From NCBI GenBank assembly GCA_044230215.1, contig JBGARM010000001.1, positions 1 to 37,970 on the forward strand: a stretch of DNA of 37,970 bases, read 5' to 3'. The notes beneath the pieces are model-generated. The model did no database searches and was not told where the DNA came from. It worked only from the letters and a program-made list of their open reading frames with translations. Each line of letters starts with the position of its first letter. Position 1 is the stretch's first letter. The translations under genes and the position numbers were made by a program. Positions 10,525-32,595 of the stretch are shown here, piece after piece. The DNA comes from Thermoanaerobaculia bacterium. Its GTDB lineage: Bacteria > Acidobacteriota > Thermoanaerobaculia > Multivoradales > JAGPDF01.

Positions 10525-10531
10525 AGCGGTA

Positions 10532-14075: not shown

Positions 14076-14077
14076 TA

Positions 14078-14767: not shown

Positions 14768-14770
14768 GCC

Positions 14771-15082: not shown

Positions 15083-15093
15083 GGCCCGCCGGC

Positions 15094-15672: not shown

Positions 15673-17423
15673 AGGAGTTTCGCCGGAATCCAGCCGCGCA
15701 GGGCGTTGATCAACAGAATCCGCCCGGCGCGCCGCAGGTCGTCCCGGGTCAGCAGCGCCTCCTTGACCTTCCCGCGCTCGAGCAGCGAGTGGCGGAAGAC
15801 GCCCGCCAGGAGTCCGCTTTCGCGCGCCGGAGTGAGACGCTCGCCGGAGATCTCGAGTACGAGATTCGTGCGCGTCCCTTCGGTGAGCTCGCCGCGTTCG
15901 TTCCACAGAAGGGCCTCGTCCGCGCCCGTCGTGCGCGCCGCGGCAAGCGCGACGTCGTAAACCGCGCGGTTCGTCGTCTTGTGAAAGAGCGCGACCGTCC
16001 GGGAGTCGACCGGAACGTCGGCGAGCACCACGCGCCATGCGCGGCGTTCGCGACGAAAAGGCTGGCTGGTAAAGGAAAGGGCTCCATCGGGGGCGAGCTC
16101 GAGACGGATGCGCTGACGTTGCGTCTCTTGGCCGTCGAAGGCGGCGAGGCCGCTCTCGACGACGGTGCGCCAGGCCCTCTCGTCGCAGTCGAATCCGAAG
16201 TAGGCAGCCGAGGCCGCGAGGCGGGCGAGGTGCTTTTCGAGCAGGGCGACGCCGCAGCGCGGGCGCCAGAGCATCGTCTCGAAGAGGGCGAATGACGGTT
16301 GGGTGTCGCCGAAGGCACGCGCCTTGGCGAGGCATTCCTGGTACTCCGCCGCCGGCGTCGAATCCCAGACCACGCCGCTGCCGACTCCGTACGAGAGCGT
16401 GCCGGCGGCGCGGTCGACGACTGCGGTGCGGATCGCGACCGAGAAGCTCGCGCGCCGTGTCGGGGCCGCCCAGCCGATCGCGCCGCAGTACACTCCCCTG
16501 GGCGACTTCTCCAGGCGGGCAATCCAGTCCATCGTGCGCGCCTTCGGCGCGCCGGTCACCGAAGCGCAGGGAAAGAGGGCGGCAAAGATCTCCGGCAGCT
16601 GCGCGCGGCTCCGCGCGGACACCGTCGAGGTCATCTGCCATACGGTCGGGTAGCGCTCGAGAGCGAACAGACCCGCGACGGCGACACTGCCGGGTTCGGC
16701 GATCCGCCCGAGATCGTTGCGGACCATGTCGACGATCATCAGATTCTCGGCGCGCTCCTTGGCCGAGCCGGCGAGCTCCGCGGCCTGCCTGCCATCCTCC
16801 TCGGCAAAGCGGCCGCGTAGCCGGGTTCCCTTCATCGGGCGCATCTCCAGGTGATCGCCGTTGCGGCGGAAGAAGAGCTCCGGCGAGAGCGACACGATCG
16901 CGGTGTCGCCGCAATCGAGAAAGGCAGCGTGCGGCGCCAGGCTCGCGGGCGCCAGGCTCCAGAAAAGCCCCTCGGCGTCGCCGGCGAACCGGGCGCGCAT
17001 CGGAAAGGTGAAGTTGACCTGGTAGGTCTCCCCCGCGGCGATCGCCCCGCGAATCGCCGCCAGCGCGGCGGCATGCTCCGAGCCCTCGAGGAGCGGCGAG
17101 AGTCCGGCGCGGTGCATCGGCTCGGCGGCGGGCGGGGCGCTCATCGCGTCCGGCGGCGTGAAGACGGTGAAGGCGGCCAGCAGCCCGGCCGCCGGCGCGC
17201 GCACGACCAACGCCGGATCGAAGGCCGGAGCCGCCTCGTAGGTGACGTATCCGACCGCCCAGAGGCCGTCCGCGGTGGCGAGCTCGACGCGTTCGAGCAG
17301 ACCGGACATCTCCGCCAGGCTCCTGGCGCCGATGCGCTCCACCGGCGACCGGAAGCGCCACCAGCGCGTTTCCCGGCCGTCGTCGGGTGCCCGCAGGATG
17401 GCGCTGGCGGGGGCTTCGTTCAA
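15669..17423 (-). CDS. pabB: Bifunctional aminodeoxychorismate synthase component I (PabB) / aminodeoxychorismate lyase-like (PabC, class IV aminotransferase fold) fusion
   Basis: Chorismate-binding motifs (SPELFFRR, MKGTRLRG, AENLMIVDMVRNDLGRI, VTGAPKARTMDWI, GVYCGAIGW). These are followed by a class-IV-fold tail (LFETMLW..., FHKTTNRAVYD, WNERGELTEGTRTNL). The proposed TTG start at 17423 overlaps the upstream stop (TTGA). Confidence 0.78.
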   Translation of the reverse strand: MNEAPASAILRAPDDGRETRWWRFRSPVERIGARSLAEMSGLLERVELATADGLWAVGYVTYEAAPAFDPALVVRAPAAGLLAAFTVFTPPDAMSAPPAAEPMHRAGLSPLLEGSEHAAALAAIRGAIAAGETYQVNFTFPMRARFAGDAEGLFWSLAPASLAPHAAFLDCGDTAIVSLSPELFFRRNGDHLEMRPMKGTRLRGRFAEEDGRQAAELAGSAKERAENLMIVDMVRNDLGRIAEPGSVAVAGLFALERYPTVWQMTSTVSARSRAQLPEIFAALFPCASVTGAPKARTMDWIARLEKSPRGVYCGAIGWAAPTRRASFSVAIRTAVVDRAAGTLSYGVGSGVVWDSTPAAEYQECLAKARAFGDTQPSFALFETMLWRPRCGVALLEKHLARLAASAAYFGFDCDERAWRTVVESGLAAFDGQETQRQRIRLELAPDGALSFTSQPFRRERRAWRVVLADVPVDSRTVALFHKTTNRAVYDVALAAARTTGADEALLWNERGELTEGTRTNLVLEISGERLTPARESGLLAGVFRHSLLERGKVKEALLTRDDLRRAGRILLINALRGWIPAKLL

Positions 17424-18481
17424 ATGCGGGCCGCCGCCTGCCGGGTCGCGCGCGCCACCGCCAGCCGTTCGGCGACGACCTGGTCGGCGACACGAAAGGG
17501 CGGCGCACTCTGGCACTCGGCCCGATCGAGGAGCTCCGCGAGATCCGCGCCGATCCGCTGCACCCGCGCCACGATGCCGGTCTCGTCGAGGACTCCGGTT
17601 TCTAATAGCACCGAGAGGAGTCCACCGGCATTGACCACGAAGTCGGGTGCGTAGAGCACGCCGCAACGGTGAAGCTCGAGACCGACTTCGGGCGAGGCCA
17701 GCGGATTGTTCGCGGCGCCGACGATCGCCGCGCAACGCAAGTCGGCGACCGTTGTCGGCGTGAGGACGCCGCCCGCGGCGTTGGGCGAAAAAATGTCGCA
17801 ATCGGCGGCGAGGATCTCCTCCGGGGCCACGGCCCGGGCACCGGTCGCGCGTACGACGGCGTCCTGGCGGCCACGAACGGTGTCCGTCACAATCAGGCTG
17901 ACCCCCTTACCAGCAAGCTTTTCGGCAAGCCGACCGCCTACCTCGCCTAGCCCCTGAAGCGCCACGGTGCAGGCGGAAAGAGGCTTGCCGAGGCGCCCGG
18001 CGACGACCTCCATTGCCGCGACGACACCGATCGCGGTCAGGTCGGAGGCATCGACTCCAGCCGTCGCCGGCGTATGGCCGATGTGCTTCGTGACGCCACC
18101 CATGAGCGCGAGATCGGCGGCGTCGATCCCCATGTCGCCGCCGGTGAAGAACCGTCCGCCGAGCTCCTCGACCGCGTTGCCGAAGGCGAGGAGCAGCTCC
18201 GGCGTCTTCTCGCGCAGCGGGTCGCCACAGATCACCGCCTTGCCGCCGCCGCACGGCATGCCGGCGAACGCGGCCTTGGCCGTCATGGCGTGGGAGAGCC
18301 GCAGGGCGTCCTCGATGGCCTCCTCGAAGACAGGGTAGAGCCGCATGCGGGTGCCGCCGATGGCGCGCCCGAGGGTCGTGTCGTGAATGGCGATCACCGC
18401 CCGCAGGCCGACCGCCGGCTCCTGGACGATCAGCAGGCGCTCGTGGCCGAGCTCGCGAGCGAGGTCGAGGACGGCGGTCAC
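17420..18481 (-). CDS. Leu/Val/Phe dehydrogenase (Glu/Leu/Phe/Val dehydrogenase family)
   Basis: LRAVIAIHDTTLGRAIGGTRMRLY, PCGGGKAVICGDP and the Rossmann motif LQGLGEVGG. A GTG start at 18481 gives a 353-aa protein of normal length and overlaps the vapC stop (GTGA). Confidence 0.85.
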   Translation of the reverse strand: MTAVLDLARELGHERLLIVQEPAVGLRAVIAIHDTTLGRAIGGTRMRLYPVFEEAIEDALRLSHAMTAKAAFAGMPCGGGKAVICGDPLREKTPELLLAFGNAVEELGGRFFTGGDMGIDAADLALMGGVTKHIGHTPATAGVDASDLTAIGVVAAMEVVAGRLGKPLSACTVALQGLGEVGGRLAEKLAGKGVSLIVTDTVRGRQDAVVRATGARAVAPEEILAADCDIFSPNAAGGVLTPTTVADLRCAAIVGAANNPLASPEVGLELHRCGVLYAPDFVVNAGGLLSVLLETGVLDETGIVARVQRIGADLAELLDRAECQSAPPFRVADQVVAERLAVARATRQAAARI

Positions 18482-18903
18482 GGCTGGTGGACTTCGTCGA
18501 CGCCGGGGGCGACCACCGTCAGGCCCTGGAGACGAGCGGCGGCGGCGAGTCGTTCGTCGTAGCAGAGAAAACAACCGGGAGGCGGAGTGAATTCGAGCGC
18601 CGTCGCGAGATGGATCGCATCGAGCGTACGCAGCGTTGCCGGGCCCAGGGTCTCCGCCTTGTCGAGGATCGCTTCGGTGGGGCGGCGCAGGTGCACCCGA
18701 GTCAAGTAGCGACGCGCTTCGAACATCGCAACCTCGTCGGCGTGGGCGCGGCGCAAAGCGCGTTGCACTTCGACCCGGGCGATCGACGACGAGACCACAT
18801 CGGGCCGGCGGTCGAGAAATCTGCGCAGCGCCGAGGTCTCGCTCTCCTCGAGGAAGAGCTTGATGAGCGCCGACGCGTCCGCGTAGACGAACGTGTCGGT
18901 CAA
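18478..18903 (-). CDS. vapC: PIN-domain toxin VapC
   Basis: 141 aa. Conserved acidic positions are visible (VYADASAL, FLEESE, LDAIHLATAL, CYDERL). The TTG start overlaps the vapB stop (TTGA). Confidence 0.85.
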   Translation of the reverse strand: MTDTFVYADASALIKLFLEESETSALRRFLDRRPDVVSSSIARVEVQRALRRAHADEVAMFEARRYLTRVHLRRPTEAILDKAETLGPATLRTLDAIHLATALEFTPPPGCFLCYDERLAAAARLQGLTVVAPGVDEVHQP

Positions 18904-19217
18904 AACTCTTCCTCCTCCCTCATCTCGATCAGGATCTGGCTCAACGATTTCGCCCCGGGCAACGGCGGCAGGGGTGGGTTGTTGCGCAGGAACTCGCCCA
19001 GATCGCCTTGCGCCGGAATGACCCGGCCATCCGCGATCATCCGGGCCAGGGAATTCTCGTTGTCGTCGGGCAGCGGCACCAGCAGCGCCACCGGCCGGCC
19101 ATGCTCGGTGACCTCCAGTCGCTCCCCCTCCTTCACCCGATCGAGATAGACGGAGAGGTTCTGCCGCAGCTCGCGGACGCCGACCTGCGGGGTCGGAGTC
19201 TTCGCGTTCTCGCTCAT
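18900..19217 (-). CDS. vapB: Phd/YefM-type antitoxin (VapB)
   Basis: 105 aa. VGVRELRQNLSVYLDRVKEGERLEVTEHGRPVALLVP is a classic Phd/YefM N-terminal domain. Immediately upstream of the PIN gene. Confidence 0.85.
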   Translation of the reverse strand: MSENAKTPTPQVGVRELRQNLSVYLDRVKEGERLEVTEHGRPVALLVPLPDDNENSLARMIADGRVIPAQGDLGEFLRNNPPLPPLPGAKSLSQILIEMREEEEF

Positions 19218-19259
19218 GACGCACAGCGTAGCACAAATCGGGCGAAAGCCCGCGCGGCT

Positions 19260-20252
19260 TCAGTGCGGCAGCAGATAGGCGACCGCGAAGCCGATCTGGG
19301 CGGCCATCATCATCAGGTACATCTGCTTCCAGCTCGGGTGATTCTCGGTACGCGTCAGGTCGTCGGGATCGCGCAGGATCAGGTAGACCGTGTAGCAGCC
19401 CCAGACGGTCAGCAGCGCTCCCAGCGCGGTCAGCGCGTTCTGGTTGCCGGTGAGGATCGCGTGCGCCGGATTCTGCGGGTCCGGCAGATGGGCGAAGAGC
19501 GGCACCAGGAGCCAGGGGAAGACGAAGAACGGCGCGATGATCCAGGCGGCTTTCTTGGGCCCGTGAAGGATCGGCAGGGTCTTGCAGCCGCCGGCGGCGT
19601 CGCCCTTGATGTCGGCGAAGTCCTTGGTCGATGCCGCCCCGACCAGGAAGAGCATGAAGATAGAGCCCAGCGCCCAGGGCTCCCAATGGCCGACGCGGGC
19701 GACCATCGCCCAGCCGGCGACTTTGAGCAGGCAGCCGCGCGGAATGGCGATCGTCCAGTTCGCCCACATCCCGCGCGCCTTCGTGCGGCCCCACGAGGGT
19801 ACCGAGTAGATCAGGGTGAAGATCATCCCGGCGAGGTAGATGTAGAACGTCTCGTGCCAGGGAAGGGGCGCGCCGATCTTCGCCGCCAGAGTGGTGTGGG
19901 GGAAAACCACCACCGCCCAGGTCGGGACGAGAGCCAGGGCGTAGAAGACCCAGGTGAAGATCCATCCCTCGCGCAGGCTGAGTGCGCCGGTGACCAGCGG
20001 CCGCCCCGGCTTGTTGACCCGGTCGATCTCGAGGTCGGTGATCTGGTTGATCGCGTTCGACGCCGCGTTCATGAAGCTCGCGCAGAGCGAGCCCAGCGCC
20101 ACCGTGAGGATCACGGAGAGGGTGAGATGGCGCGCCGGATCCGGATTGTGCACCGAGCCCCAGGCGCAGATCGAGCCCGAGATGATTCCCAGGAGCGGCG
20201 GCAGCAGGGTGAAGGGGCGCGACAGCTGGACGTAGAGATTGGTCTTTTTCAT
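19260..20252 (-). CDS. UbiA-superfamily prenyltransferase (ChlG/BchG/DGGGPS-like clade)
   Basis: 330-aa polytopic membrane protein. First Asp-rich motif NQITDLEIDRVNKPGRPLVTG. Also IYSVPSWGRTKARGMWAN and a second motif KDFADIKGDAAGGCKTLPILHG. Confidence 0.88.
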   Translation of the reverse strand: MKKTNLYVQLSRPFTLLPPLLGIISGSICAWGSVHNPDPARHLTLSVILTVALGSLCASFMNAASNAINQITDLEIDRVNKPGRPLVTGALSLREGWIFTWVFYALALVPTWAVVVFPHTTLAAKIGAPLPWHETFYIYLAGMIFTLIYSVPSWGRTKARGMWANWTIAIPRGCLLKVAGWAMVARVGHWEPWALGSIFMLFLVGAASTKDFADIKGDAAGGCKTLPILHGPKKAAWIIAPFFVFPWLLVPLFAHLPDPQNPAHAILTGNQNALTALGALLTVWGCYTVYLILRDPDDLTRTENHPSWKQMYLMMMAAQIGFAVAYLLPH

Positions 20253-20296
20253 GCCGCCGCAAGCTTATCGGATCACGCGCCCGGAGCTCGCGACGA

Positions 20297-21838
20297 TCAG
20301 TCGAAATGCCGGACGCGCGGCCACAGACCAGCCAGGTCGGCCAGCGGCCGCCGCACGATCCAGATCGGCAGCTCGTCCTCGTACGGCATGCAGTCGCGGC
20401 AGTCGAAGGTCGCACCGAGCTCGACCTCCGCGAAGAGCTTGCCCAGGCTAAAGGCGTCGTCCCCGAGAACGAGCAGAACCTCACCCGAGCAGGCGCCGAG
20501 GCCCCAGAGGTACCAGCTGTTGTGCGCCGAGATCGCCGGCGGCAGGTGGAGCTCGCCGCCGAAGTAGGCGACGGCAGAGGCCTCGCCGTAGTTCTGCCCG
20601 AAGACGCAGGCGCTTCGGCGCTCGTCTCGAGTGAGCCGGTCCGCCGCGACGCCGACGGCCTCGGCGAGACCGCGCCACTCCTGCATGTCGGCGAAGAACT
20701 GCGGCAGCCGGCCGAGCGACTTTCGCTCGTCGGTCCCCGGCTCCTGCCCCAGAGCGCGCGCGTAGCGCACGTAGGCATCGACCGGCAGGATCGGGCGAGC
20801 GAGCGGCGCGAGAGCGAGTCCCGAGAGCACGACCGAGCCGACTGCGGCGGCGCGCCAGACGAAGCCGCCGCGCCGCCCGCGCGTCCACGCTTCGATCGCT
20901 ACCGCTCCGGCGGCCCAGAGCATCGGGTACGCCGGCGCCAGATAGTAGGGCTTTGCGGCGGTCGAGAGCATCACGACGAGGATGGCGAGGTAGGCGACAC
21001 CGAGGGAGCGCCACGGACGAAAGCGCAGCGCGAACAGCAGCGCCAGGAGACCTGAGATCCACACGACGGCGTGCAGAGGTCCGGTCTGCAGGAGCTGCGC
21101 GGTCAGAAAGTCGACGGGCGCGAGCGCAACGTTCTTGCTCTGGCTGGCGTTGGTCATGAATTCGCGGGTCGGCCAGCCGTGCAGGTGCTGCCAGACGAGG
21201 TGGGGCGCGAAGAGGAGTCCGGCGAGGGCGCCGCCGAGCCAGAGGTAGCGGCTGCGCAGAAGGTCGAAGCGCCGCGTCGCGACCACCCCCAAGGCCAGGC
21301 CGAAGCCGAGGAAGAGCATGCTGATCTTGTTCAGCAGGCCGAGCCCGGCAACCGCGCCGAAGGCCAACCAGAGACGCTCGTCGCCGCCGTCGAGGAGGGC
21401 CGCGGCGAGCCGGCAGGCGAGCGCCCAGAAAAGCAGGTCGAAGACGTTCATCGACAGAACCGAGGTGAGCCCCAGGACGATCGGCGAGAGTCCGACCGCC
21501 AGGCCGGTCAGCGCGACGGCGAAGTTGCCGCCGCCCAGGCGCCGGGCGAGCGAGCCCGAGATTGCGACCGCACCCGCACCGGCGAGGGCCGCGAGGATGC
21601 GAATCGCCAGCAGCGAGTCGCCAAAGAGGAGCGTCCAGAGCGCGGTCATCGCCGCGATCAGCGGCGGGTGGTCGACATAGCCCCAGTCGAGCCGCGCCGC
21701 ACAGGCGAGGTAGTAGAGCTCGTCACGAAAGATGCCGTAGGTGGTGGCGAAGATCGCGTGCAGGAGGAAGACGGCGACCGCCGGCCCCCAGAGGGCCAGC
21801 CGATTCCAGCTCGCTTCCTGTCGTGGTTCCGCGGTCAT
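20297..21838 (-). CDS. GT-C fold glycosyltransferase, family 39 / ArnT-PMT-like (polyprenyl-phosphate-sugar dependent)
   Basis: ATG at 21838. 513 aa with many TM helices. N-terminal loop motif FRDELYYLACAARLDWGYVDHPPL (the DExxY type of ArnT/PMT enzymes). Soluble C-terminal domain. Confidence 0.85.
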   Translation of the reverse strand: MTAEPRQEASWNRLALWGPAVAVFLLHAIFATTYGIFRDELYYLACAARLDWGYVDHPPLIAAMTALWTLLFGDSLLAIRILAALAGAGAVAISGSLARRLGGGNFAVALTGLAVGLSPIVLGLTSVLSMNVFDLLFWALACRLAAALLDGGDERLWLAFGAVAGLGLLNKISMLFLGFGLALGVVATRRFDLLRSRYLWLGGALAGLLFAPHLVWQHLHGWPTREFMTNASQSKNVALAPVDFLTAQLLQTGPLHAVVWISGLLALLFALRFRPWRSLGVAYLAILVVMLSTAAKPYYLAPAYPMLWAAGAVAIEAWTRGRRGGFVWRAAAVGSVVLSGLALAPLARPILPVDAYVRYARALGQEPGTDERKSLGRLPQFFADMQEWRGLAEAVGVAADRLTRDERRSACVFGQNYGEASAVAYFGGELHLPPAISAHNSWYLWGLGACSGEVLLVLGDDAFSLGKLFAEVELGATFDCRDCMPYEDELPIWIVRRPLADLAGLWPRVRHFD

Positions 21839-21903
21839 CTCTTCTCCAGGCCTGCTTCGTCTACGGCCGGCGGCAGCAGGGGTTTCGCGGTGGGCCCGGC
21901 TCT

Positions 21904-23244
21904 TCAGGCCAGCAGGGCGGCTCCGCCGGCGGCGAGCAGGGCTCCGGCGAGGCTGTTGAGGAAGTTGACCGCCTCGTTGTCGAGCAGACCACGCTTCTCC
22001 AGCGTCGCGCCGACGACACTTTCGAGTGTCGTGGCGACGAAGGCGGCGACGACGACGGCAGCGATCCCGATCGCCGGGTAGAGCCCGAGGGCGGCGCCCA
22101 GGCCGGCGAGCAAGAGCGCGGCCGCCATTCCCGCGGCGGTGCCCTCGAGCGAGACAGCGCCGTCGGTGCCGCGCGGCACGGCGCGAAGGGTGGTGATGAG
22201 GTAGGTGCGACGGCCGAAGGCCTTGCCGACCTCGGACGACACCGTGTCGAAAGCAGCGGTGGCGAAAGCGCCGGCGAGCGCGAGCGCAAACAGTGTGGGA
22301 TAGGCGGTCGTGGCGGCGAAGATCGCGGCCAGCGCCGGAATCGACGTCTTCGACAGCGCGTTGCCCGGCCCGCGCCGGCCGCCCTTCTCCTGCGCGATCC
22401 CGGCCGCTGCCTTGCGGGCGTAACCGAGCTTGGTCGCCGCCGTACCGAGGACGAAGAAGGCAAAGAGCAGGGCGAACGACGCGCCGCCACCGAAGGCCCA
22501 GATCGTCGTGCCGAGGAAGATCCCGACCGCTGCGCCCGCGCGTCCCACACCCTTCGTCGCATAGGCAGCCACGGCGAGCACGATGTTCACCGCCAGGCCG
22601 ATCGCCAGGCCGCGCACGAAGGCCGGAGAGCCGACGACCGCCCAGTTTCCCTGGGTGAGCGTGAGGCAGTAGAGCACTGCGGCGGTGACCAGCGGCACGC
22701 CGAGATTGTCGTCGAGCCCCAGGGGCTGCGACTCGAGGAGCGCCGCGAAGAGCGCGGCGGCGAAGGCGATGGCGACGGCGAAGACGAAGCCGTAGCGACC
22801 GGGTGCGGACCACAGGAGCAGGATCGCCGCGGCGAGAGTGCCGAAGAGAACGAACGCCAAGGACCCGGCCCAGCTCTTGGCCGGATTCCAGGGCAGCCGA
22901 CGTCGCCCGATCGCCATGCCGACAATCGACGCCATGCCGTCGCCGAAGGCGAGGATCCCCCAGGTCGCGGCGGCCACCTCGAGGCGGCGCGCAAAGACGA
23001 CGATCAGCAGCAACACGGCGATCGGGTAGAGGACGATGCCGAGGGCGAAGCCGCTCTGCGTCTCGCCTTCGCGCCAGAGCGAGCGGCCGCCGATGCGCGG
23101 CAGCACGAACGCGTTGAAGAGAACGGCGGTGAGCGCCGCCAAGGCGGCAAGCGGAGCCCCCAACGGCCGCACGGCGAAGGCGAAACCGCCAACCGCCATG
23201 TGCACCGCCTTGCGGCCGAGCTCTCCCGGCGTCAGGCCGGCCAT
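21904..23244 (-). CDS. Fusion protein: polyprenol/phytol-kinase-like domain (CTP-transferase-1 superfamily, VTE5/dolichol-kinase type) + DUF92/TMEM19 domain (VTE6 phytyl-phosphate-kinase type)
   Basis: N-terminal half: GRKAVHMAVGG and FGDGMASIVGMAIGRRRLPWNPAKSWAGSLAF. C-terminal half: GTAATKLGYARKAAAGIAQEKGGRRGPGNALSK, FDTVSSEVGKAFG and PRGTDGAVSLEGTAAG. The start is taken as ATG 23244, but ATG 23199 is also possible. Confidence 0.72.
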   Translation of the reverse strand: MAGLTPGELGRKAVHMAVGGFAFAVRPLGAPLAALAALTAVLFNAFVLPRIGGRSLWREGETQSGFALGIVLYPIAVLLLIVVFARRLEVAAATWGILAFGDGMASIVGMAIGRRRLPWNPAKSWAGSLAFVLFGTLAAAILLLWSAPGRYGFVFAVAIAFAAALFAALLESQPLGLDDNLGVPLVTAAVLYCLTLTQGNWAVVGSPAFVRGLAIGLAVNIVLAVAAYATKGVGRAGAAVGIFLGTTIWAFGGGASFALLFAFFVLGTAATKLGYARKAAAGIAQEKGGRRGPGNALSKTSIPALAAIFAATTAYPTLFALALAGAFATAAFDTVSSEVGKAFGRRTYLITTLRAVPRGTDGAVSLEGTAAGMAAALLLAGLGAALGLYPAIGIAAVVVAAFVATTLESVVGATLEKRGLLDNEAVNFLNSLAGALLAAGGAALLA

Positions 23245-24230
23245 GCACCCGTCTCCCGGAGCCAGGCGAGCGTCGCCTCGAGCCCGGCGCGGAGGCTCCG
23301 CGGGCGATGGCCGATCTCGGCGATCGCGGTCGCCGAGTCGTAGGCCCAATCATGGCGGTAGATCTCCACCAGGTCGGGCGTGAGCCGCGGCACGCCGCCG
23401 GTGAGGCGCGCCCAGGCCTTCATGGCCGCACCGCTCGCCGTCGCCACGAAGTCCGGCATGCGCAGCCGCGGCACGCGAATGCCGCCGAGCTCGGCTACCT
23501 GGCGATAGAGCTCGCCCTGGGTGACGTTCTCTCCACCGAGCATGTAGCGGCGGCCGGTGGGCCCCTGTTCGAGGGTCGCGACGATGCCGGCAGCGACATC
23601 GTCGACGAAGACATAGTTCCAGCGCCGCTCGGCCTTGCCCACCAGCGCCGGCAGGCGGCCGTGCGCCAGATCGAGGAGGTGGCGCACGAGGATGTTGCCT
23701 TCCGTGAGCTCGCCGGGACCGTAGATCACCCCGGGATAGACGACCGACAGCGGCGCGCCCTCGGCGATGGCGCGCCGGGCGCCCATGTCGGAGATCGTCT
23801 TGGTGCGCTGGTAGTCGTTGATCCAGGTCCGCGGCCTGCTCTCGGCCCGCTCGTCGAGCTCGCCTCCGGCGGCACCTTCGGTCGGACCGAGGGCGATGAA
23901 GCTCGAGACGTAGACGACCCTGGCGACCCTCGCCTCGGCGGCCGCCGCCAGGACGTTCTCGAGTCCGCCGATGTTGACGCGGTCGAACTCCGCCGCCGGG
24001 GCGTCGATCTTGACCAGCGCCGCGGCGTGCAGCACGGCGTCGCAGCCGGCAGCGCCGGAGGCGAGGCTCGGCAGGTCGGTGACGTCGCCGGCGACGAAGT
24101 CGACGCCCGCCGGAAAGCGCTCGCGCGACGCCCCCGGACGCACGAGTAGACGAAGCTCGTGGCGCGGCGCCAGCGCGGCGACAGTCCGGCGACCGAGGAA
24201 CCCGGTCGCTCCGGTGACCAGGATCTTCAT
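23232..24230 (-). CDS. NAD(P)-dependent epimerase/dehydratase/reductase (extended SDR)
   Basis: MKILVTGATGFLGRRTV Rossmann motif. Catalytic YQRTK. The ATG at 24230 overlaps the upstream stop (ATGA). Confidence 0.85.
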   Translation of the reverse strand: MKILVTGATGFLGRRTVAALAPRHELRLLVRPGASRERFPAGVDFVAGDVTDLPSLASGAAGCDAVLHAAALVKIDAPAAEFDRVNIGGLENVLAAAAEARVARVVYVSSFIALGPTEGAAGGELDERAESRPRTWINDYQRTKTISDMGARRAIAEGAPLSVVYPGVIYGPGELTEGNILVRHLLDLAHGRLPALVGKAERRWNYVFVDDVAAGIVATLEQGPTGRRYMLGGENVTQGELYRQVAELGGIRVPRLRMPDFVATASGAAMKAWARLTGGVPRLTPDLVEIYRHDWAYDSATAIAEIGHRPRSLRAGLEATLAWLRETGAWPA

Positions 24231-25204
24231 GCGGCTGGCCCTCCTGCCGAAGGCACCGCCCGATCGCGATGGGCGCGTGCTTCGCAGAACAGGTCCGCGA
24301 GCGCCGCGTCGACGCCGCGCTCGGGCTCCCAGCCCAGCGCCCGCAGGCGCGAAGCGTCGCCGCAAAGGCGCGGCACATCGACCGGGCGCAGCTTCTCCGG
24401 GTCTTCGGCGCAGCGCACCTCGAGACCCGACAGGGCGATCAGGCGTCCCAGCAGCTCGGCAATCGAATGGTCGACGCCGCTCGCCAGGTTGAGGACTGTC
24501 CCGGGTTGCGGCTCCTCCGCGAGGAGGGCCAGCGCCGCGACGGCGTCATCGACATGCAGGAAGTCGCGGCGCGCGGAGAGATTGCCGACCGAGAGCAGTG
24601 GCGGTGCGCCGTGCTCGATCGCCGCGAGCTGCGCCGCGAAGGAGGGTAGCGCGAAGCTCGCTGCCTGACCGGCGCCGATCAGGTTGAACGAGCGCACGAC
24701 CGTGGCGCCGGCGGCGAGCGCCAGGCGCTCGGCCGATGCCTTGGTCAGCGCATACGGGTTGCGCGGCGAGAGCGGCCGAAGCTCGGAGATCGGCTGCGCC
24801 TCGTCCGGCACCAGACCGTAGACCTCGGCGCTCGACATGAAGAGCACCGGGCAGCCGCGGGCGGCCGCCAGGATGTGCTCCACGCCGAGCACGTTGATGG
24901 CGAAGTACTCCGGAATCCGCCGCCACGATTCGCCGACATGCGAAAGCGCCGCGAGGTGCACGATGCGATCGGGAGCGAAGCGGTCGACCGCCGCGGCCAT
25001 TGCCGCGGCGTCGCGCACGTCGACCGCGAAGCGATCGGCCGAAAACGGCAGCTCTTGCTGGTCGATCGCCACCGCGCCAACCCGATGGCCCTGCGCCGCG
25101 AGCCGCCCCGCCAATCGCCGCCCCACGAAGCCGGTGGCACCGGTGACGAGGATGCGGGAGGTCACGGGACGGGACTCGGACGGCGGCGGCTCTTGGAAAG
25201 GCAA
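24227..25204 (-). CDS. rmd: GDP-4-keto-6-deoxy-D-mannose reductase-like SDR (Rmd-like)
   Basis: ILVTGATGFVGRRL, YALTK, SFNLIGAGQ and SVGNLSARRDFLHVDD resemble Rmd. It sits directly downstream of gmd. The start is uncertain: TTG 25204 or GTG 25165. Confidence 0.7.
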   Translation of the reverse strand: MPFQEPPPSESRPVTSRILVTGATGFVGRRLAGRLAAQGHRVGAVAIDQQELPFSADRFAVDVRDAAAMAAAVDRFAPDRIVHLAALSHVGESWRRIPEYFAINVLGVEHILAAARGCPVLFMSSAEVYGLVPDEAQPISELRPLSPRNPYALTKASAERLALAAGATVVRSFNLIGAGQAASFALPSFAAQLAAIEHGAPPLLSVGNLSARRDFLHVDDAVAALALLAEEPQPGTVLNLASGVDHSIAELLGRLIALSGLEVRCAEDPEKLRPVDVPRLCGDASRLRALGWEPERGVDAALADLFCEARAHRDRAVPSAGGPAA

Positions 25205-25211
25205 CCGCGCG

Positions 25212-26180
25212 CTACTTTCGCGCGATGCGCTGACGCCAGTAGTTGAGCAGGTCTTCGAGCGTCTGGTCGAACGGGATCTGCGGCTCCCAGCCGGTATCGG
25301 CGTGGAACTTCGAATAGTCGCCGATCAGCACTTCGACGTCCGAGGGACGCAGCCGCGCCGGGTCGGTCTCGACCTTCACTTCCACCTTCGCCAGGGCGAT
25401 GAGCTTGTCGAGCATCGCGCGGATGGTGATCGCCTTTCCCGAAGCCAGGTTGTAGACCTCGCCCGGCTTGCCCTTCTCCGTCGCCAGGACGTAGCCGCGC
25501 ACCATGTCGCGCACGTCGGTGAAGTCCCGCACCGCGTCGAGATTGCCGACCTTGATGATCGGGGCGGCCTTGCCGGCCTCGATCGTCGCCACCTGCCTGG
25601 CGAAGTTCGAGGTCACGAAAACCTCGCCGCGGCGCGGGCCGGTGTGGTTGAAGCCGCGCGTCCGGATCGCGCGGATCCCGTAGCTCATGAAGTACTGATA
25701 GGCGAGAAAATCCTGCGTCACCTTGGAGACCGCATAGGGCGACAGCGGCCGCAGCGGGTTGGTCTCCTTGATCGGCACTTCGTTCGGCAGCACCAGTCCG
25801 TACTCCTCCGAGGAGCAGGCGATCTGGATTGCCGGATCGAGGCCGAGCGAGCGCACCGCCTCGAAGATGTTGGTCTGGCCGGAGATGTTGTCGGTCAGCG
25901 TCTGCAGCGGCGACACCCAGGACGACGGCACGAAGCTCTGTGCCGCAAGGTGGTAGATCGCGTCGGGTCGGCTGGCCTCGAGGGCGTTGCGCACCGCGGT
26001 CATGTCGGAGAGATCGCACTCCAGAAGGCGGATCCTGCCCTCGATCGCCTCGATGTTCTCGCGCCGGCTGCGCCAGCGATAGGTGCCGAAGACCTCGACT
26101 CCCGGGCGATCGGCGAGGAAGTGCTCGGCGAGATGCGAACCCGCGAAGCCGGTGATGCCGGTGATCAGTACGCGTTGCAT
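25212..26180 (-). CDS. gmd: GDP-mannose 4,6-dehydratase (short bacterial type)
   Basis: VLITGITGFAGSHLAE, SPYAVSK, GFNHTGPRRGEVFVTSNFARQVA and VGNLDAVRDFTDVRD. AAGGAG RBS upstream of ATG 26180. Confidence 0.85.
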   Translation of the reverse strand: MQRVLITGITGFAGSHLAEHFLADRPGVEVFGTYRWRSRRENIEAIEGRIRLLECDLSDMTAVRNALEASRPDAIYHLAAQSFVPSSWVSPLQTLTDNISGQTNIFEAVRSLGLDPAIQIACSSEEYGLVLPNEVPIKETNPLRPLSPYAVSKVTQDFLAYQYFMSYGIRAIRTRGFNHTGPRRGEVFVTSNFARQVATIEAGKAAPIIKVGNLDAVRDFTDVRDMVRGYVLATEKGKPGEVYNLASGKAITIRAMLDKLIALAKVEVKVETDPARLRPSDVEVLIGDYSKFHADTGWEPQIPFDQTLEDLLNYWRQRIARK

Positions 26181-26196
26181 TCAGCTGCTCCTTTGT

Positions 26197-27039
26197 CTAA
26201 GTCCCAAGGTGACTGGTGAGCCCTTCGTGCCAGGACTCGACGGTGCGCCCCGCAAGTTTCTCGAAACGATCGACCGCCAGCACCGAATACGCCGGCCGCG
26301 GCGCCGGCCGCGGCGCTTCCGCGGTGGTGATCGGAGTGACCTCGATCCCCGGTCCGAGCCGCCGCGCGATCTCCCTGGCGAACTCGCACCAGGAGACTGC
26401 CGGCCGATTCTGATAGTGCACCAGCCCGGTGGTGCCCCATTCTCCCAGATCCGACACGGCCGTGGCCAGGAAGGGGGCCCAGGTGGGGGCGCCGAACTGG
26501 TCGTCGACGACACGGAAGCTCTTCTGCCCGCTGCGGATGCGGCCGGCGATCGTGTCGACGAAGTTCGCCCCTCCCCGGCCGAAGACCCAGCTGGTCCGGA
26601 CGACCAGCGACCGGTCGCTCGCCAGCGCCTGGCGCTCGCCCTCGAGCTTGCTCCGGCCGTAGCTCGACTGCGGCGCGGTCGGATGGTCCTCGGTGTAGGG
26701 CGCGGTCGCGCGGCCGTCGAAAACGTAATCGGTGGAAAGGTGGATGAGCCGGGCGCCGGACGCCTCCGCCGCGCGGACGAGATCTCCGACCGCGGCGCCG
26801 TTGACCGCGAGAGCGCGCTCCGGCTCGGCTTCGCAGAGATCGACCTGGGTGAACGCAGCGCAGTTGACGATCAGCGCCGGCCGGAAGGCCGTGCAGATCT
26901 CGTCGATGCGAGCGCGGTCGGTGACATCGCCCTGGCCGTGCGAGAGTCCGAGCACCGGCCAGCCGCGGCTGCGCGCGTCCTGCAGCAGCTGCCGATAGAA
27001 CGGCGCATCGACGTCGCCGTCGTCGAGCCACGCCCGCAC
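26197..27039 (-). CDS. dTDP-4-dehydrorhamnose reductase (RmlD)-like protein with a degenerate N-terminal dinucleotide-binding motif
   Basis: IVNCAAFTQVD, HLSTDYVFDG, YGRSKLEGE, RTSWVFG and DDQFGAPT are colinear with RmlD. The proposed GTG start at 27039 gives a normal length, but the GxxGxxG position reads LDDGDVDAPF. Confidence 0.65.
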   Translation of the reverse strand: MRAWLDDGDVDAPFYRQLLQDARSRGWPVLGLSHGQGDVTDRARIDEICTAFRPALIVNCAAFTQVDLCEAEPERALAVNGAAVGDLVRAAEASGARLIHLSTDYVFDGRATAPYTEDHPTAPQSSYGRSKLEGERQALASDRSLVVRTSWVFGRGGANFVDTIAGRIRSGQKSFRVVDDQFGAPTWAPFLATAVSDLGEWGTTGLVHYQNRPAVSWCEFAREIARRLGPGIEVTPITTAEAPRPAPRPAYSVLAVDRFEKLAGRTVESWHEGLTSHLGT

Positions 27040-27126
27040 GGTGAACGCGGCGGTGCCCTCGCGCGTACCTGCCCAGCAGTACGACGCCTGCTCGCCGAGC
27101 GGCTGGAGGAGATCGCGCCGGCGGAA

Positions 27127-27768
27127 GTGCGGCAGCTCTTCCGGAATCCCTTCCTGACCGGGGAGCAGATCGATCGCCTGCTGTCCTCGAATCGCCTCCT
27201 TTCCGCCTACGAAGTCCGCATGGAGGCGGCGCGCCATCCGCGGACGCCCCAGCTCGCCGCACTGCGGTTCATCCCCGGTCTCTACTGGGCGGATCTGGTC
27301 CGTATCGGCCTCGACATGCGGCTCCATCCGGTCGTCCGGAGGGCGGCGGAGACCCGACTGGTCGAGCGTCTGCCGGCGCTCTCGGTCGGCGAGAAGATGG
27401 CCATCGCACGCAGCGCGGCGCCAGGCGTACTGGCGACGCTGCGCAACGATCCGACGCCGCGGGTCATTGCCGCGCTGCTCGAGAACCCCCGTCTCACCGA
27501 AGGCCTGCTGTTGCCGCTCCTGGCCTCGGAGGGGGCGTCGCCGTCGGTGCTGGGCGTGGTCGCCGGCAGCCCGAAATGGAGCGTGCGCTATCCGGTCCGT
27601 CTCGCCCTCTGCCAGAACACCCGCACGCCTCTCGACCGGGTCCTGCTCCTGCTGCCGCTGCTCAAGCGCGGCGATCTCTGCAGCGTGGCGGCGAATCCGC
27701 ACCTCCGGCTGCCGGTGCGCCGCCGGGCGCAGCTCCTGGCCCGCGGCGGCCAGGAACTGCGAATTTGA
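27127..27768 (+). CDS. Hypothetical all-alpha repeat protein (paralog of the C-terminal half of 28880-29896)
   Basis: 3' third of ORF 26083-27768. Repeated NP-containing helical units (LENPRLTEGLLLPLL, LALCQNTRTPLDRVLLLLPLLKRGDL, ANPHLRLPVRRRA). Start uncertain: GTG 27127 lies 15 nt after GGAGGAG, and ATG 27220 is also possible. Confidence 0.5.
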   Translation: MRQLFRNPFLTGEQIDRLLSSNRLLSAYEVRMEAARHPRTPQLAALRFIPGLYWADLVRIGLDMRLHPVVRRAAETRLVERLPALSVGEKMAIARSAAPGVLATLRNDPTPRVIAALLENPRLTEGLLLPLLASEGASPSVLGVVAGSPKWSVRYPVRLALCQNTRTPLDRVLLLLPLLKRGDLCSVAANPHLRLPVRRRAQLLARGGQELRI

Positions 27769-27827
27769 CCCCGATGGACGGGACTCGATACCCTAGTCCG
27801 TCCGGCAGCAAACCTCCCGGTACCGGC

Positions 27828-28874
27828 ATGAGCCAGCCCGTCTCCGAAGAAACGTCGAAGTCAGCCGAAGCGTCCACTGGCCAGAGCCCGAGCCCTTCGT
27901 TCGGCGCCTGGCTGCGGCACCAGCGTGAGGCCCGCAGCGTGTCGATGCGCGAGATCGCCGACAACAGCAAGATCAGCCTGCGCTACCTCGAAGCTCTCGA
28001 ACAGGACCGTTTCGACGTCCTGCCGGCACCGGTCTTCGCGCGCGGGTTCCTGCGCGAGTACGCGCGAGTCGTGGGGCTCAATCCTGACGAGGTCGTGAAC
28101 CTCTATCTCGTCGCCGTCGAGGAGCGCGCCGAGGGCACCCGAAGGGTCGAGCGCGCCAAACCGGTGCGCGCCGAGAGCCTGAGCTCGGCCCCGTCCTCGC
28201 TCGGCTACGGCCTGCTCCTCGGCCTCGCGGTCGTTCTCTTCGTCGGCATCGCGGCCCTGCTTTCGTTCCTCGCCGAGCGCCGTCGCGGCGTTCCCACGGA
28301 ATCCAAGCTCGTAGCTCCGGCGACGATGGTTGCGCCGGCCGAAAGCGTCCCGGCCCCTGCTGCGCTCGTGCCCCCGCCCGCGGTCGAACCGGGGAGCATG
28401 GCAGGAGATTCGACCGGTGCGGCAGCGGCAGCGCCGGCCGCCGGAGCTCCGACGCCTTCCGAGGCTTCCGCCAAGGGGCCCGCTCCCGCCGCCGCGGTCG
28501 CCGCCGACGGCGCTCCCCCCGCTGTTGCCGGCCCCTTCCGCGTCGTCCTCAATTTCAGCCAGGACTGCTGGATGGAGTCGGTGGTCGACGGTATCCGTCG
28601 CACCAGCGAGCTCAAGGCCGCCGGAGAGACGGTCCAGCTCGAGGCCTTCCAGGCGGTCGTGCTCACTCTCGGCAACTCCCGCGCCCTGACCGTCGAAGTC
28701 GACGGCGTGCCGTTCGCCCTGCCCGAGAACTCGACCCGGGTCGTGCGGGACCTGAGGATCGAGCGCCCCGTGCGTCCCAGCCCGGTTTCCGGAGCTGCGA
28801 CGCCGCCTCGCCCCGGACTCACCGTCCCAGCTTCCGGCCGCAGCCCCGCCGATCCTCCGCCGGTCCGTCGCTGA
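27828..28874 (+). CDS. rodZ: RodZ-like cytoskeleton/cell-shape protein (XRE-type HTH, TM helix, DUF4115-like C-terminal domain)
   Basis: HTH region FGAWLRHQREARSVSMREIADNSKISLRYLEALEQDRFDVLPAPVFARGFLREYA. TM helix GLLLGLAVVLFVGIAALLSFL. Ala/Pro linker. C-terminal beta domain (FRVVLNFSQDCWMESVVDG...LTLGNSRALTVEVDG). Confidence 0.8.
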   Translation: MSQPVSEETSKSAEASTGQSPSPSFGAWLRHQREARSVSMREIADNSKISLRYLEALEQDRFDVLPAPVFARGFLREYARVVGLNPDEVVNLYLVAVEERAEGTRRVERAKPVRAESLSSAPSSLGYGLLLGLAVVLFVGIAALLSFLAERRRGVPTESKLVAPATMVAPAESVPAPAALVPPPAVEPGSMAGDSTGAAAAAPAAGAPTPSEASAKGPAPAAAVAADGAPPAVAGPFRVVLNFSQDCWMESVVDGIRRTSELKAAGETVQLEAFQAVVLTLGNSRALTVEVDGVPFALPENSTRVVRDLRIERPVRPSPVSGAATPPRPGLTVPASGRSPADPPPVRR

Positions 28875-28879
28875 CGCCC

Positions 28880-29896
28880 GTGGCGTCGACCCACCCGCTC
28901 GTCGAGCAGGTCCGGTCCGGTGTGAGCCGCGAGCTGCAGCTGCTGGCGGCGCAGGGGATTCTGCCGCTCTCGGCGCAGGATCTCATTCCGCTCCAGGTCG
29001 AGCTCACCGAATCCGAAAGCCCGGAGATCTCGGGCTACGCCAGATCCTCCCTCGAAGAGCTCGACCCCAAGCTCGCCGCGACGTTCGTCGAGACCGAGGC
29101 CTCCGAGGAGGTGCTGGGGTACTTCGCCACCAACCCGACTCACCCGTTCGTCCTCGAGGCGCTCATGCGCCGTCGGGACGTCCCCCGCTTCCTGCTCGTC
29201 GATCTCGCCGGGAGGCTCCCCCCGGATCTGCAGGAGAGCCTGCTGCTGCGGCAGGACGCGATCATCGAAGAACCGGAGATTCTGGTCGCGCTCGAGGCCA
29301 ACCCCGAGGTCTCGGTCTACGCGCGGCGCAAGATCGTCGAGTATCGCGAGCACCTCTTGCCGCGCCAGCCGCAGGTCGTCGAGGCCGGTTTCTCGGACCT
29401 CCAGCACATCGAGCTCGCGCCGGAGGACCTGGCGGCGATCGAGAAGGCAAAAGACCTGCCGGCGATGGGCGAGCGCGACGAGAAGACGGGCCTCTCGGAG
29501 AGCCAGATCCGCGTCCTGCCGGTGCCGCTGAAGATCAAGCTGACCCGCGGCGCCTCGCGGACGCTGCGGGCCATCCTGATCCGGGACACGAACCAGTCGG
29601 TGGCGCTCTCGGTAGTCAACAACGCGGCGATGAGCGACGACGAGATCGCCCAGGTCGCGGCCAGCCGCTCGGTCATCGACGAAGTCCTGACCGTCATCTC
29701 GCGGCGTCGGGAGTGGCTGGCGAAATACAAGATCTGCCTGGCGCTGGCGAAGAACCCGCGCATCCCCGTCGGGGTGGCGGTGAAGCTGCTGCCCAAGCTC
29801 TCGGTCCGCGACCTGCGTGCCATGTCCAAGGATCGCAACGTTTCCGACGCCGTGCGGTCCTCGGCAGGGCGGTTGTATAGAATCAAGACCAAGTAG
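28880..29896 (+). CDS. Hypothetical all-alpha repeat protein (HEAT/LRV-like NP repeats)
   Basis: GTG start 6 nt after the rodZ stop. 338 aa. Repeats such as ATNPTHPFVLEALMRRRDVP, EANPEVSVYARRKIVEY and LALAKNPRIPVGVAVKLLPKLSVRDL. The C-terminal roughly 120 aa are colinear with 27127-27768. Confidence 0.7.
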   Translation: MASTHPLVEQVRSGVSRELQLLAAQGILPLSAQDLIPLQVELTESESPEISGYARSSLEELDPKLAATFVETEASEEVLGYFATNPTHPFVLEALMRRRDVPRFLLVDLAGRLPPDLQESLLLRQDAIIEEPEILVALEANPEVSVYARRKIVEYREHLLPRQPQVVEAGFSDLQHIELAPEDLAAIEKAKDLPAMGERDEKTGLSESQIRVLPVPLKIKLTRGASRTLRAILIRDTNQSVALSVVNNAAMSDDEIAQVAASRSVIDEVLTVISRRREWLAKYKICLALAKNPRIPVGVAVKLLPKLSVRDLRAMSKDRNVSDAVRSSAGRLYRIKTK

Positions 29897-29898
29897 GT

Positions 29899-31352: not shown

Positions 31353-31367
31353 GCGGCGGGCCGGGAC

Positions 31368-32525: not shown

Positions 32526-32595
32526 GGCTGTTTTCCTTTACTGGAATACGGTGTCGCGGGTGCCACGGTTGCGGCAAGCTCGCTCCGGACGACTT

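Follow-up and report, generated by a model that had tools for sequence, protein, structure and literature searches.

A conserved acidobacterial gene block places a putative prenol-kinase fusion and a UbiA-family prenyltransferase beside rml-type genes and lptD

Gene content and layout of the cluster

The sequence analyzed here, hereafter the window, is a 37,970-nt stretch of a Thermoanaerobaculia bacterium genome (Acidobacteriota; assembly GCA_044230215.1, contig JBGARM010000001.1, positions 1–37,970 of the forward strand), and it contains seven co-oriented, tightly packed minus-strand genes encoding a UbiA-family prenyltransferase, a GT-C glycosyltransferase, a fusion of a small membrane domain (N-domain) to a DUF92 domain, RmlD and, according to profile searches, three further extended short-chain dehydrogenases/reductases (SDRs). 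Comparison with related genomes identifies a conserved block composed of lptD, rml-type genes, an HpnA-like SDR, a VTE5-like::DUF92 (VTE6-like) fusion and UbiA. The best explanation for this arrangement, which we hold with even confidence for and against, is that of an acidobacterial envelope gene block in which a sugar module accompanies a prenol-kinase/UbiA core making an isoprenoid lipid. The features of the cluster are the following:

19260–20252, minus strand: UbiA prenyltransferase, 330 aa
20297–21838, minus strand: GT-C glycosyltransferase, 513 aa
21904–23244, minus strand: two-domain fusion (N-domain::DUF92), 446 aa
22600–23244, minus strand: N-terminal half of the fusion, ~215 aa, small membrane domain of the CTP_transf_1 superfamily (PF01148, sub-threshold)
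21904–22599, minus strand: C-terminal half of the fusion, DUF92 domain (PF01940)
23232–24230, minus strand: HpnA-like SDR, 332 aa
24227–25165, minus strand: SDR_B, 312 aa
25212–26180, minus strand: SDR_A, 322 aa
26197 onwards, with native homology to 26973, minus strand: RmlD (TIGR01214)
19239–19252, minus strand: terminator-like GC hairpin with a T-rich tail (pattern scan, consensus match only)

A first-pass annotation of this DNA, made by a model from the sequence alone, had described a seven-gene minus-strand order with gaps of at most 65 nt and several overlaps, and this layout is borne out by gene calls derived from third-position GC (GC3) frame analysis and from near-identical public contigs, which agree with each other. 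Intergenic gaps measure 44, 65, 46, and 16 nt. Two gene pairs overlap, by 13 and 4 nt, the longer overlap joining the stop of the HpnA-like SDR to the start of the fusion gene. Co-orientation, gaps of no more than 65 nt, the two overlaps and a terminator-like hairpin found only after UbiA are all compatible with a putative single operon, and the position of the hairpin just 3' of the UbiA stop makes it a possible operon end. No promoter could be located 5' of the cluster within the window, because the 5' end of the cluster has been replaced at a junction (see below). The G+C content ranges from 66 to 72% across the cluster and from 62 to 73% over the whole window, and long spurious open reading frames (ORFs) are consequently abundant. 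A 1018-aa ORF at 20297–23353 (minus strand), which a naive ORF caller would report as a giant gene, was rejected as a high-GC artefact: the Arg-rich proximal half results from reading the fusion gene out of frame, and its distal half, corresponding to the GT-C gene, is the sole in-frame part.

Conservation of the block in the Acidobacteriota

With each GTDB species represented by a single genome, 333 genomes were found to carry a close relative of the UbiA encoded in the window. The best 80 of these 333 are labelled Thermoanaerobaculia, Holophagales, Multivoradales or Acidobacteriota, with the exception of one genome labelled Deltaproteobacteria and two labelled 'uncultured bacterium'. Component counts were taken among the 54 species loci for which the full 10 kb upstream of UbiA are available:

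N-domain, upstream of UbiA: 53/54 loci
DUF92, upstream of UbiA: 52/54 loci
HpnA-like SDR, upstream of UbiA: 49/54 loci
SDR_B, upstream of UbiA: 52/54 loci
SDR_A, upstream of UbiA: 51/54 loci
RmlD, upstream of UbiA: 51/54 loci
LptD, upstream of UbiA: 45/54 loci
GT-C, upstream of UbiA: 7/54 loci

The same order is thus maintained in 45 to 53 of the 54 species-level genomes, and the clustering exceeds chance. The proposed association with nucleotide-sugar enzymes of the 6-deoxyhexose type is likewise conserved, SDR_A and RmlD each being present in 51 of these loci. Foreign genes are inserted at two junctions only, between SDR_B and the HpnA-like SDR and between the fusion gene and UbiA, which divides the block into two sub-modules. 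In loci devoid of GT-C, UbiA either follows the fusion gene directly or is separated from it by a PAS hybrid histidine kinase gene in the same slot. At the other junction, a 426–454-aa gene with no Pfam match lies between SDR_B and the HpnA-like SDR in the Thermoanaerobaculia loci L032 (6293–7657), L087 (6386–7666), and L085.

A second scan, in which a profile of distant UbiA relatives was run against metagenome contigs, recovered a clade identified as Vicinamibacterales. Its UbiA and LptD proteins are, respectively, ~48% and ~25% identical to those of the window, and gene order is kept: DUF92 was found in 30/32, the N-domain in 28/32, an SDR in 22/25, and LptD in 12/13 of the loci. SDR_B is absent from this version of the block. 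On the 3.3-Mb contig L181 the arrangement reads AccD-FolC-LptD-RmlA-RmlC-RmlB-SDR-HpnA-like-fusion-UbiA-radical SAM. The first-pass annotation had named random juxtaposition as one outcome that would undo its proposal, and the persistence of the block across the Thermoanaerobaculia and the Vicinamibacterales runs counter to that outcome.

The UbiA subfamily and the kinase fusion

The UbiA protein belongs to the PF01040 superfamily (109.3 bits, gathering score 34.2) and carries a first motif NQITDLEID (NQxxDxxxD) and a second motif KDFADIKGD. Both motifs are invariant in the subfamily alignment. The Q of motif 1, which stands where all aligned relatives have D, is fixed in 22 diverse members, and motif 2, KDFxDxxGD...TLP in the subfamily, is of the ChlG/DGGGPS type. 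A profile built from the 22 diverse members and searched against the PDB scores 104.6 bits on ChlG (9sau), 103.9 bits on DGGGPS (6m31), and 50.9 bits on AfUbiA, in agreement with the earlier description of this protein as ChlG/DGGGPS-like; on the decaprenyl-phosphate phosphoribosyltransferase (DPPR synthase) 8j8j it scores 23.4 bits (E 2.5e-4). The protein nonetheless lies far below the cut-offs of all named equivalogs (ChlG, DGGGPS, HPT, MenA, EboC, and others). Scores against cut-offs are 87.3/313 (NF005742), 52.7/436 (TIGR02056), and 67.4/212 (TIGR01476) for ChlG/BchG, and 67.8/296 (NF009521) and 64.4/353 (NF009522) for DGGGPS. EboC membership was considered and rejected (NF035940, 26 bits against 250). 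These comparisons point to an uncharacterised subfamily nearest to ChlG and DGGGPS. Chlorophyll synthase and DGGGPS both use C20 diphosphates.

In the two-domain fusion, residues 219–435 belong to DUF92 (PF01940, 171.5 bits, gathering score 27.5), with a TIGR00297 score slightly under the cut-off (183.3 against 205.85). VTE6, the phytyl-phosphate kinase of plants, belongs to DUF92. The N-domain scores 16.7 bits on PF01148, whose cut-off is 24, and standalone homologues reach 23.4 and 21.4 bits; three such homologues (L092_195, L094_197, and L088_178) yield E-values of 1e-21 to 1e-7. It lacks the CdsA signature HGGxxDRxD and carries ES...DDN together with GDGMASIVGxxxGRxxLPWNxxKSWAGS, a stretch that we take to resemble VTE5/FOLK. 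The N-domain may be read as a putative prenol kinase of the VTE5/dolichol-kinase type. The AlphaFold model of the fusion is all-helical with a pLDDT of 88.5, and sequence searches of solved structures with the fusion, either as a single sequence or as a 24-sequence profile, returned no match. Of the polyprenol-kinase/DUF92 fusion claimed in the first-pass annotation, the DUF92 half therefore stands on its PF01940 score, and the kinase half does not reach family level (PF01148, 16.7 against 24).

The trio beyond the Acidobacteriota

Searched exhaustively, the representatives at 50% identity yielded 166 clusters at E <= 1e-30, and several of them contain UbiA relatives fused to other domains. 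DUF92::UbiA fusions are represented by P0185 and P0262, and UbiA::NPP phosphodiesterase fusions, with NPP at the C-terminus, by P0155 and P0239. In P0123 and P0258 a PF00487 fatty-acid-desaturase-type domain lies N-terminal to the UbiA relative; its best hit is GntB (50 bits) and it resembles no specific characterised subfamily. The P0123 fusion (FA_desaturase::UbiA) is 53% identical to the UbiA of the window. The neighbourhoods of UbiA relatives are arranged as follows:

L092: prenyl diphosphate synthase, 195-aa N-domain homologue, DUF92, UbiA, HpnA-like SDR, 263-aa protein, NPP, two radical SAM
L094 (Planctomycetota): giant GT4/GT2 proteins, NPP, 197-aa N-domain homologue, DUF92, UbiA
L095 and L105: ApbE, HpnA-like SDR, N-domain, DUF92, UbiA, NPP, followed in L095 by a prenyl diphosphate synthase
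L088: DUF92::UbiA (P0185), then an N-domain homologue
L090, L091, and L158: UbiA, a prenyl diphosphate synthase and a shared 422–431-aa protein
L093 (Bacteroidota): PhoD adjoining UbiA

N-domain, DUF92 and UbiA hence occur in three fusion states: as N::DUF92 plus UbiA in the window, as separate genes in L092, L094, and L105, and as DUF92::UbiA plus an N-domain in P0185/L088. This is strong evidence for functional coupling of the three components. The link first noticed in the window, DUF92 fused to a CTP_transf_1-type domain beside UbiA, is accordingly strongly conserved and is backed both by fusions and by other lineages. In these lineages an NPP phosphodiesterase and a short-chain prenyl diphosphate synthase often accompany the trio. 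L092 encodes a short-chain trans synthase of the FPP/GGPP type (243 bits on the FPP synthase model, 214 bits on the CrtE model), and the presence of such synthases beside UbiA argues for a prenyl diphosphate as the donor. The recurrent phosphoesterases, in turn, would fit a head group that carries phosphate, or else a step in the periplasm.

Other genes recur in these loci. The 422–431-aa protein has no Pfam match and is encoded at 3252–4520 in L090, at 9314–10609 in L091 (40% identical to that of L090), and at 4724–5563 in L158, in lineages without the kinase genes. An ApbE (flavin transferase) gene lies immediately 5' of the HpnA-like SDR in L095 (1236–2225) and L105 (6624–7544), which are independent non-acidobacterial versions of the module. 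Radical SAM genes, including a SPASM type and a B12-binding type whose best hits (BchE, HpnJ, and HpnR) are all below cut-off, follow the module in L092 (13003–15773) and L181 (10999–12051); the encoded enzymes may tailor the isoprenoid chain.

The proximity of the subfamily to DGGGPS raises the possibility of an archaeal-type chemistry, in which UbiA would attach a geranylgeranyl-type chain, through an ether bond, to an acceptor based on glycerol phosphate. A keto intermediate would be reduced by the SDR and, in other lineages, the phosphate would be removed by a phosphoesterase, with a prenyl-glycerol lipid that might then be glycosylated as the product. In favour of this alternative are the profile score of 103.9 bits on the DGGGPS of M. 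jannaschii, a nearly identical motif (NxxNxIxDxEIDRINKPxRPLPSG), the NPP or PhoD phosphoesterases fused or adjacent to UbiA relatives, and the bacterial DGGGPS-like genes of unknown role reported in FCB and other phyla (PMC6431249, PMC7852524). Nevertheless, chlorophyll synthase scores equally well, the equivalog scores of 64–68 bits compare with cut-offs of 296–353, and the neighbourhoods inspected showed neither a GGGPS/PcrB gene nor one for G1P dehydrogenase. Furthermore, the fusion of NPP after the last helix and the hint of a TAT-type signal on the L092 NPP would suggest an extracytoplasmic action. We therefore judge a DGGGPS-like pathway to be quite unlikely.

Sugar-nucleotide enzymes and the HpnA-like SDR

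The gene called Gmd in the first-pass annotation, here SDR_A, scores 165.6 bits on the gmd model TIGR01472, far from its cut-off of 415, and SDR_B scores 64.6 bits. The best solved relative of SDR_A is instead the Rmd of Aneurinibacillus (2pk3, 286 bits, 46% identity), followed by the GDP-heptose 4,6-dehydratase 7us5 (220 bits), with true Gmds at ~150 bits. Its S-S-E and YxxxK residues are common to dehydratases too, and SDR_A is most consistent with an Rmd-like enzyme of the nucleotide-4-keto-6-deoxyhexose reductase or dehydratase type. SDR_B (PF16363, 164 bits; best PDB match Rmd 2pk3, 168 bits) appears to be a more diverged Rmd-like nucleotide-sugar SDR. The third SDR scores 200.5 bits on the HpnA model TIGR03466, below its cut-off of 367.65, and finds its best PDB match in 3wj7, a 'putative oxidoreductase' (148 bits); the window contains neither shc nor hpn genes, and the protein is best described as a predicted extended SDR of the HpnA/3-beta-HSD-like type. 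An orthologue 40% identical to it lies beside UbiA in the non-acidobacterial locus L092.

The wider sugar module becomes apparent in sister genomes. In most Thermoanaerobaculia-type genomes a 358-aa gene between lptD and RmlD encodes an RmlA-long nucleotidyltransferase (TIGR01208, 469.7 bits, above the cut-off of 320), which is missing in the clade of the window, and the first SDR of the Vicinamibacterales loci is a bona fide RmlB (TIGR01181, 424.5 bits, above 365). The occurrence of RmlA-long, RmlB, and RmlC in sister genomes indicates that the sugar module is rml-type and most likely dTDP-linked. The cluster resembles the dTDP-L-rhamnose RmlABCD pathway in these sister genes and in an RmlD above the equivalog threshold, but differs from it in that the window encodes no nucleotidyltransferase, no canonical 4,6-dehydratase and no RmlC, and in that its RmlD is 5'-truncated. 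The likeness to the GDP-D-rhamnose Gmd/Rmd pathway, on the other hand, lies in the 46% identity of SDR_A to a characterised Rmd, and Gmd itself is absent. The GDP-D-rhamnose route, put forward on the basis of a Gmd plus Rmd pair, was consequently rejected: no protein of the cluster passes the Gmd threshold, and the sister genomes carry rml genes. Neither is the module self-contained, as had been suggested, given the missing nucleotidyltransferase in the clade of the window and the truncated RmlD copy.

The variable composition of the sugar module lends some weight to an explanation based on mere juxtaposition, according to which a lipopolysaccharide/O-antigen sugar operon following lptD would lie beside an unrelated prenyl-lipid or prenylquinone-type pathway, with gene order kept by descent within the phylum and the sugar never meeting the lipid. 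The sugar set varies by class (RmlD, SDR_A, and SDR_B versus RmlC, RmlB, and an SDR_A-like gene), genes for PAS histidine kinases, Ser/Thr kinases and HD proteins are inserted exactly at the module borders, the non-acidobacterial cores (L092, L094, L095, L105, and L088) have no rml genes and, in L091, the UbiA relative sits beside a UbiE-like methyltransferase, in a quinone-style context. Against this, adjacency survives between classes whose LptD proteins are ~25% identical, the SDR_A-like gene is always directly 5' of the HpnA-like or kinase gene with gaps of tens of bases, and glycosyltransferases recur near the core (GT4/GT2 in L092 and L094, PMT with Wzy_C in L090, and GT-C in the window). 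On balance, juxtaposition is somewhat unlikely; the recurrence of glycosyltransferases, together with the rml genes and the linkage to lptD, would suggest an envelope (glyco)lipid.

The GT-C glycosyltransferase

The description of the GT-C protein as a GT39/ArnT-like enzyme agrees with its PF13231 (PMT_2) score of 82 bits, well above the gathering score of 26.1, which places it in the PMT_2/COG1807 type and within GT39-GT83. It carries an acidic motif, FRDELYY, near residue 40 in the first (extracytoplasmic) loop. The protein remains far from the Pmt (protein O-mannosyltransferase) equivalog (26.9 bits, cut-off 800), and sequence searches of solved structures with it returned no match. The likeness to ArnT/PMT systems is hence confined to the family score and the acidic DE motif, and the cluster departs from them in the failed Pmt equivalog, the lack of an ArnC-like partner and the accessory nature of the gene. 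Among the species loci, GT-C is confined to those whose UbiA shares 86% identity or more with that of the window, and a role as core component was rejected on its distribution (7/54). The gene is an insertion specific to one lineage, placed between UbiA and the fusion gene, and is best seen as an accessory acquired by the sub-lineage to which the window belongs, and the proposed conserved trio of UbiA, GT39 and DUF92 fusion does not extend to the other loci.

This distribution bears directly on the carrier model of the first-pass annotation, which can be compared with mycobacterial decaprenyl-phospho-arabinose (DPA) synthesis: the kinase would make a polyprenyl phosphate, UbiA would load a sugar phosphate onto it, the SDR would epimerise or reduce the sugar, and GT-C would transfer it to an envelope target. 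The parts, namely UbiA, SDR, GT-C and, in relatives of the window, a phosphoesterase, do resemble Rv3806c, Rv3807c, DprE2, and Emb/Aft; moreover, GT-C enzymes need polyprenyl-phosphate-linked donors, and the window encodes no GT2 loader. Yet GT-C is restricted to seven loci, the UbiA profile scores 23.4 bits on DPPR synthase against ~104 bits on ChlG and DGGGPS, and the conserved partners of UbiA are DUF92 and trans short-chain prenyl diphosphate synthases rather than cis-prenyltransferases. The mycobacterial pathway also includes a DprE1-like flavoenzyme that has no counterpart in the cluster. The notion that UbiA loads the sugar onto the lipid finds no support in these data, a DPPR-like sugar-phosphate loader was rejected as leading model, and the carrier model as a whole is very unlikely.

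The 5' junction and flanking genes

Positions 9260–26973 of the window are 99.8% identical to contigs L001–L006 from other samples (blastn against L001), where RmlD begins MRTLVLGGTGIVG and has lptD and a thiolase gene 5' of it on its own strand. Positions 27087–36552 are instead 96–99% identical to contigs L175–L179 (blastn), in which a GreA-like gene lies 5' of a divergent 249-aa gene, with an amidase gene on that side as well. The two segments meet at the following feature:

26974–27086, strand not applicable: junction, 113 nt, matching neither flanking segment (blastn against L001 and L175–L179)

This junction was found in no other retrieved assembly, and it costs both RmlD and the divergent 249-aa gene their first ~20 codons. 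It is probably either an assembly chimera or a rare, strain-specific rearrangement. RmlD scores 255.2 bits on TIGR01214 (cut-off 224.05), with profile positions 14–282 alone being matched. Owing to the loss of the native 5' end at the junction, the Rossmann glycine motif GxxGxxG, present in L001 (MRTLVLGGTGIVG), is missing in the window (VRAWLDDGDVDAP). For the same reason, the start at 27039 and the apparent status of RmlD as first gene of the operon are unreliable; the RmlD-like family call made in the first pass holds, and the start assigned to it is not genuine. Contig-specific junctions can create plausible but truncated genes, and gene starts near such junctions need to be checked.

Directly downstream of UbiA lies a VapBC pair on the minus strand, consisting of a PhdYeFM-type antitoxin (18900–19217) and a PIN-domain toxin (18478–18903), which is confined to close relatives of the window. 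Positions 9260–15100 (plus strand) hold a cytochrome c oxidase operon (SCO1, COX2, COX1, COX3, and COX4) followed by a YfbR-like HD hydrolase. The minus strand downstream of the cluster carries GDH and a PabB-aminotransferase IV fusion. Like the oxidase operon and the HD hydrolase, these two look unrelated to the cluster.

Discussion

In plants, VTE5 phosphorylates phytol and VTE6, a DUF92 protein, phosphorylates phytyl phosphate, with UbiA-family enzymes consuming the resulting diphosphate (PMC5694494, PMC9782597). In the envelope-lipid interpretation favoured here, the acidobacterial block would combine a comparable sequence of steps with a sugar module. The first module (RmlD, SDR_A, and SDR_B, with RmlA-long, RmlB, and RmlC in sister genomes) would make a nucleotide-activated 6-deoxyhexose, most likely dTDP-linked. 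In the second module, which would constitute the real core, the CTP_transf_1-like N-domain would phosphorylate a free prenol of presumably C15–C20 length, the DUF92 domain would add a second phosphate to yield a prenyl diphosphate, and UbiA would use this allylic diphosphate to O-prenylate an acceptor that is probably polar or phosphorylated. Homology to VTE5 and VTE6 is the basis on which both kinase activities are predicted. An isoprenoid lipid anchored in the membrane would result, with a presumed destination in the envelope, the HpnA-like SDR may provide redox tailoring of substrate or product, and any link between sugar and lipid is conjectural.

Several observations weigh against this interpretation. 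The N-domain narrowly misses the Pfam threshold, and a Pfam match does not distinguish kinases from cytidylyltransferases. A Foldseek search returned no hit at E <= 0.001, with CdsA 4q2g at rank 50, the query being the whole two-domain fusion model, which probably hurt the search. The invariant D-to-Q change in the Asp-rich motif 1 of UbiA could mean altered chemistry, and no characterised protein is known to us from this UbiA subfamily, from the N-domain family or among the bacterial DUF92 proteins. Furthermore, a de novo prenyl diphosphate synthase lies beside the 'salvage' kinases in L092 and L095, which simple salvage does not explain. Lastly, the sugar genes are absent outside the Acidobacteriota and their make-up differs between classes, so that the link between sugar and lipid may reflect inherited synteny rather than one pathway.

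A bolder version of the envelope-lipid interpretation posits a new class of isoprenoid-anchored envelope lipids in the Acidobacteriota and, with another gene set, in some Planctomycetota and Deltaproteobacteria-labelled metagenome-assembled genomes. The NQxxDxxxD UbiA, as a new subfamily, would join a C15–C20 prenyl chain, supplied by the VTE5::VTE6-type kinase fusion, to a phosphorylated polar head, and in the Acidobacteriota this head would be decorated with a dTDP-derived 6-deoxyhexose and the lipid bound for the outer membrane. If true, delivery of the lipid to the outer membrane would explain the deep linkage to lptD. This extended proposal is speculative, and we consider it unlikely.

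The closest known system is the phytol salvage of plants and cyanobacteria, in which VTE5 and VTE6 feed VTE2/HPT and chlorophyll synthase. Both share a small membrane protein of the CTP_transf_1 type, DUF92 and a UbiA of the ChlG/HPT/DGGGPS clade with KDxxDxEGD, as well as the logic of converting a prenol into its phosphate and then its diphosphate for prenyl transfer (PMC5694494). In the window, however, the kinases are fused, genetically tied to the transferase and found in non-phototrophic Acidobacteriota; the homogentisate and chlorophyll context is replaced by an HpnA-like SDR, rml genes and lptD; and UbiA falls below the ChlG (87 versus 313) and HPT (57 versus 226) models, with NQ rather than ND in motif 1. 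Archaeal DGGGPS is one of the two best structural-sequence relatives and has a nearly identical first motif region, but UbiA stays under its equivalog thresholds and lacks a GGGPS/G1PDH partner, and DGGGPS systems have neither kinase nor DUF92. The mycobacterial DPA pathway (Rv3806c, a phosphatase, DprE1/DprE2, and GT-C) likewise combines a UbiA-fold enzyme, an SDR and a GT-C, with a phosphoesterase in relatives of the window, and is set apart by a UbiA remote from DPPR synthase (23 bits) and by the non-conserved GT-C. The pairing of a UbiA-family protein with an NPP-type phosphodiesterase in relatives of the window is also reminiscent of EboC and EboF in the ebo cluster (PMC6282210), now linked to thallusin biosynthesis (bioRxiv 10.64898/2026.05.21.724671); in contrast, the UbiA of the window scores 26 against 250 on the EboC model, no EboA, B, D, or E was seen, and ebo clusters have no kinases.

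Searches for literature on the DUF92 family and a prokaryotic cluster returned plant VTE6 papers and unrelated TMEM19 work alone. The first prediction of VTE6 is said to have come from prokaryotic clustering, in the PlantSEED paper. The cluster would represent a variant of the known VTE5/VTE6-type prenol activation feeding UbiA, and no description of the module itself was found in the searchable literature, its overlap with the prokaryotic clustering of PlantSEED not having been judged.

Few soil bacteria are as abundant as the Acidobacteriota, yet little is known of the chemistry of their envelope. A block kept in two deeply divergent classes points to an envelope isoprenoid lipid that has escaped study and to three concrete enzymes. 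If true, the envelope-lipid interpretation would extend two-step prenol phosphorylation of the VTE5/VTE6 type from plants and cyanobacteria to non-phototrophic bacteria, and would assign a role to a large clade of UbiA proteins now mislabelled in annotation as 4-hydroxybenzoate polyprenyltransferase, chlorophyll synthase or DGGGPS.

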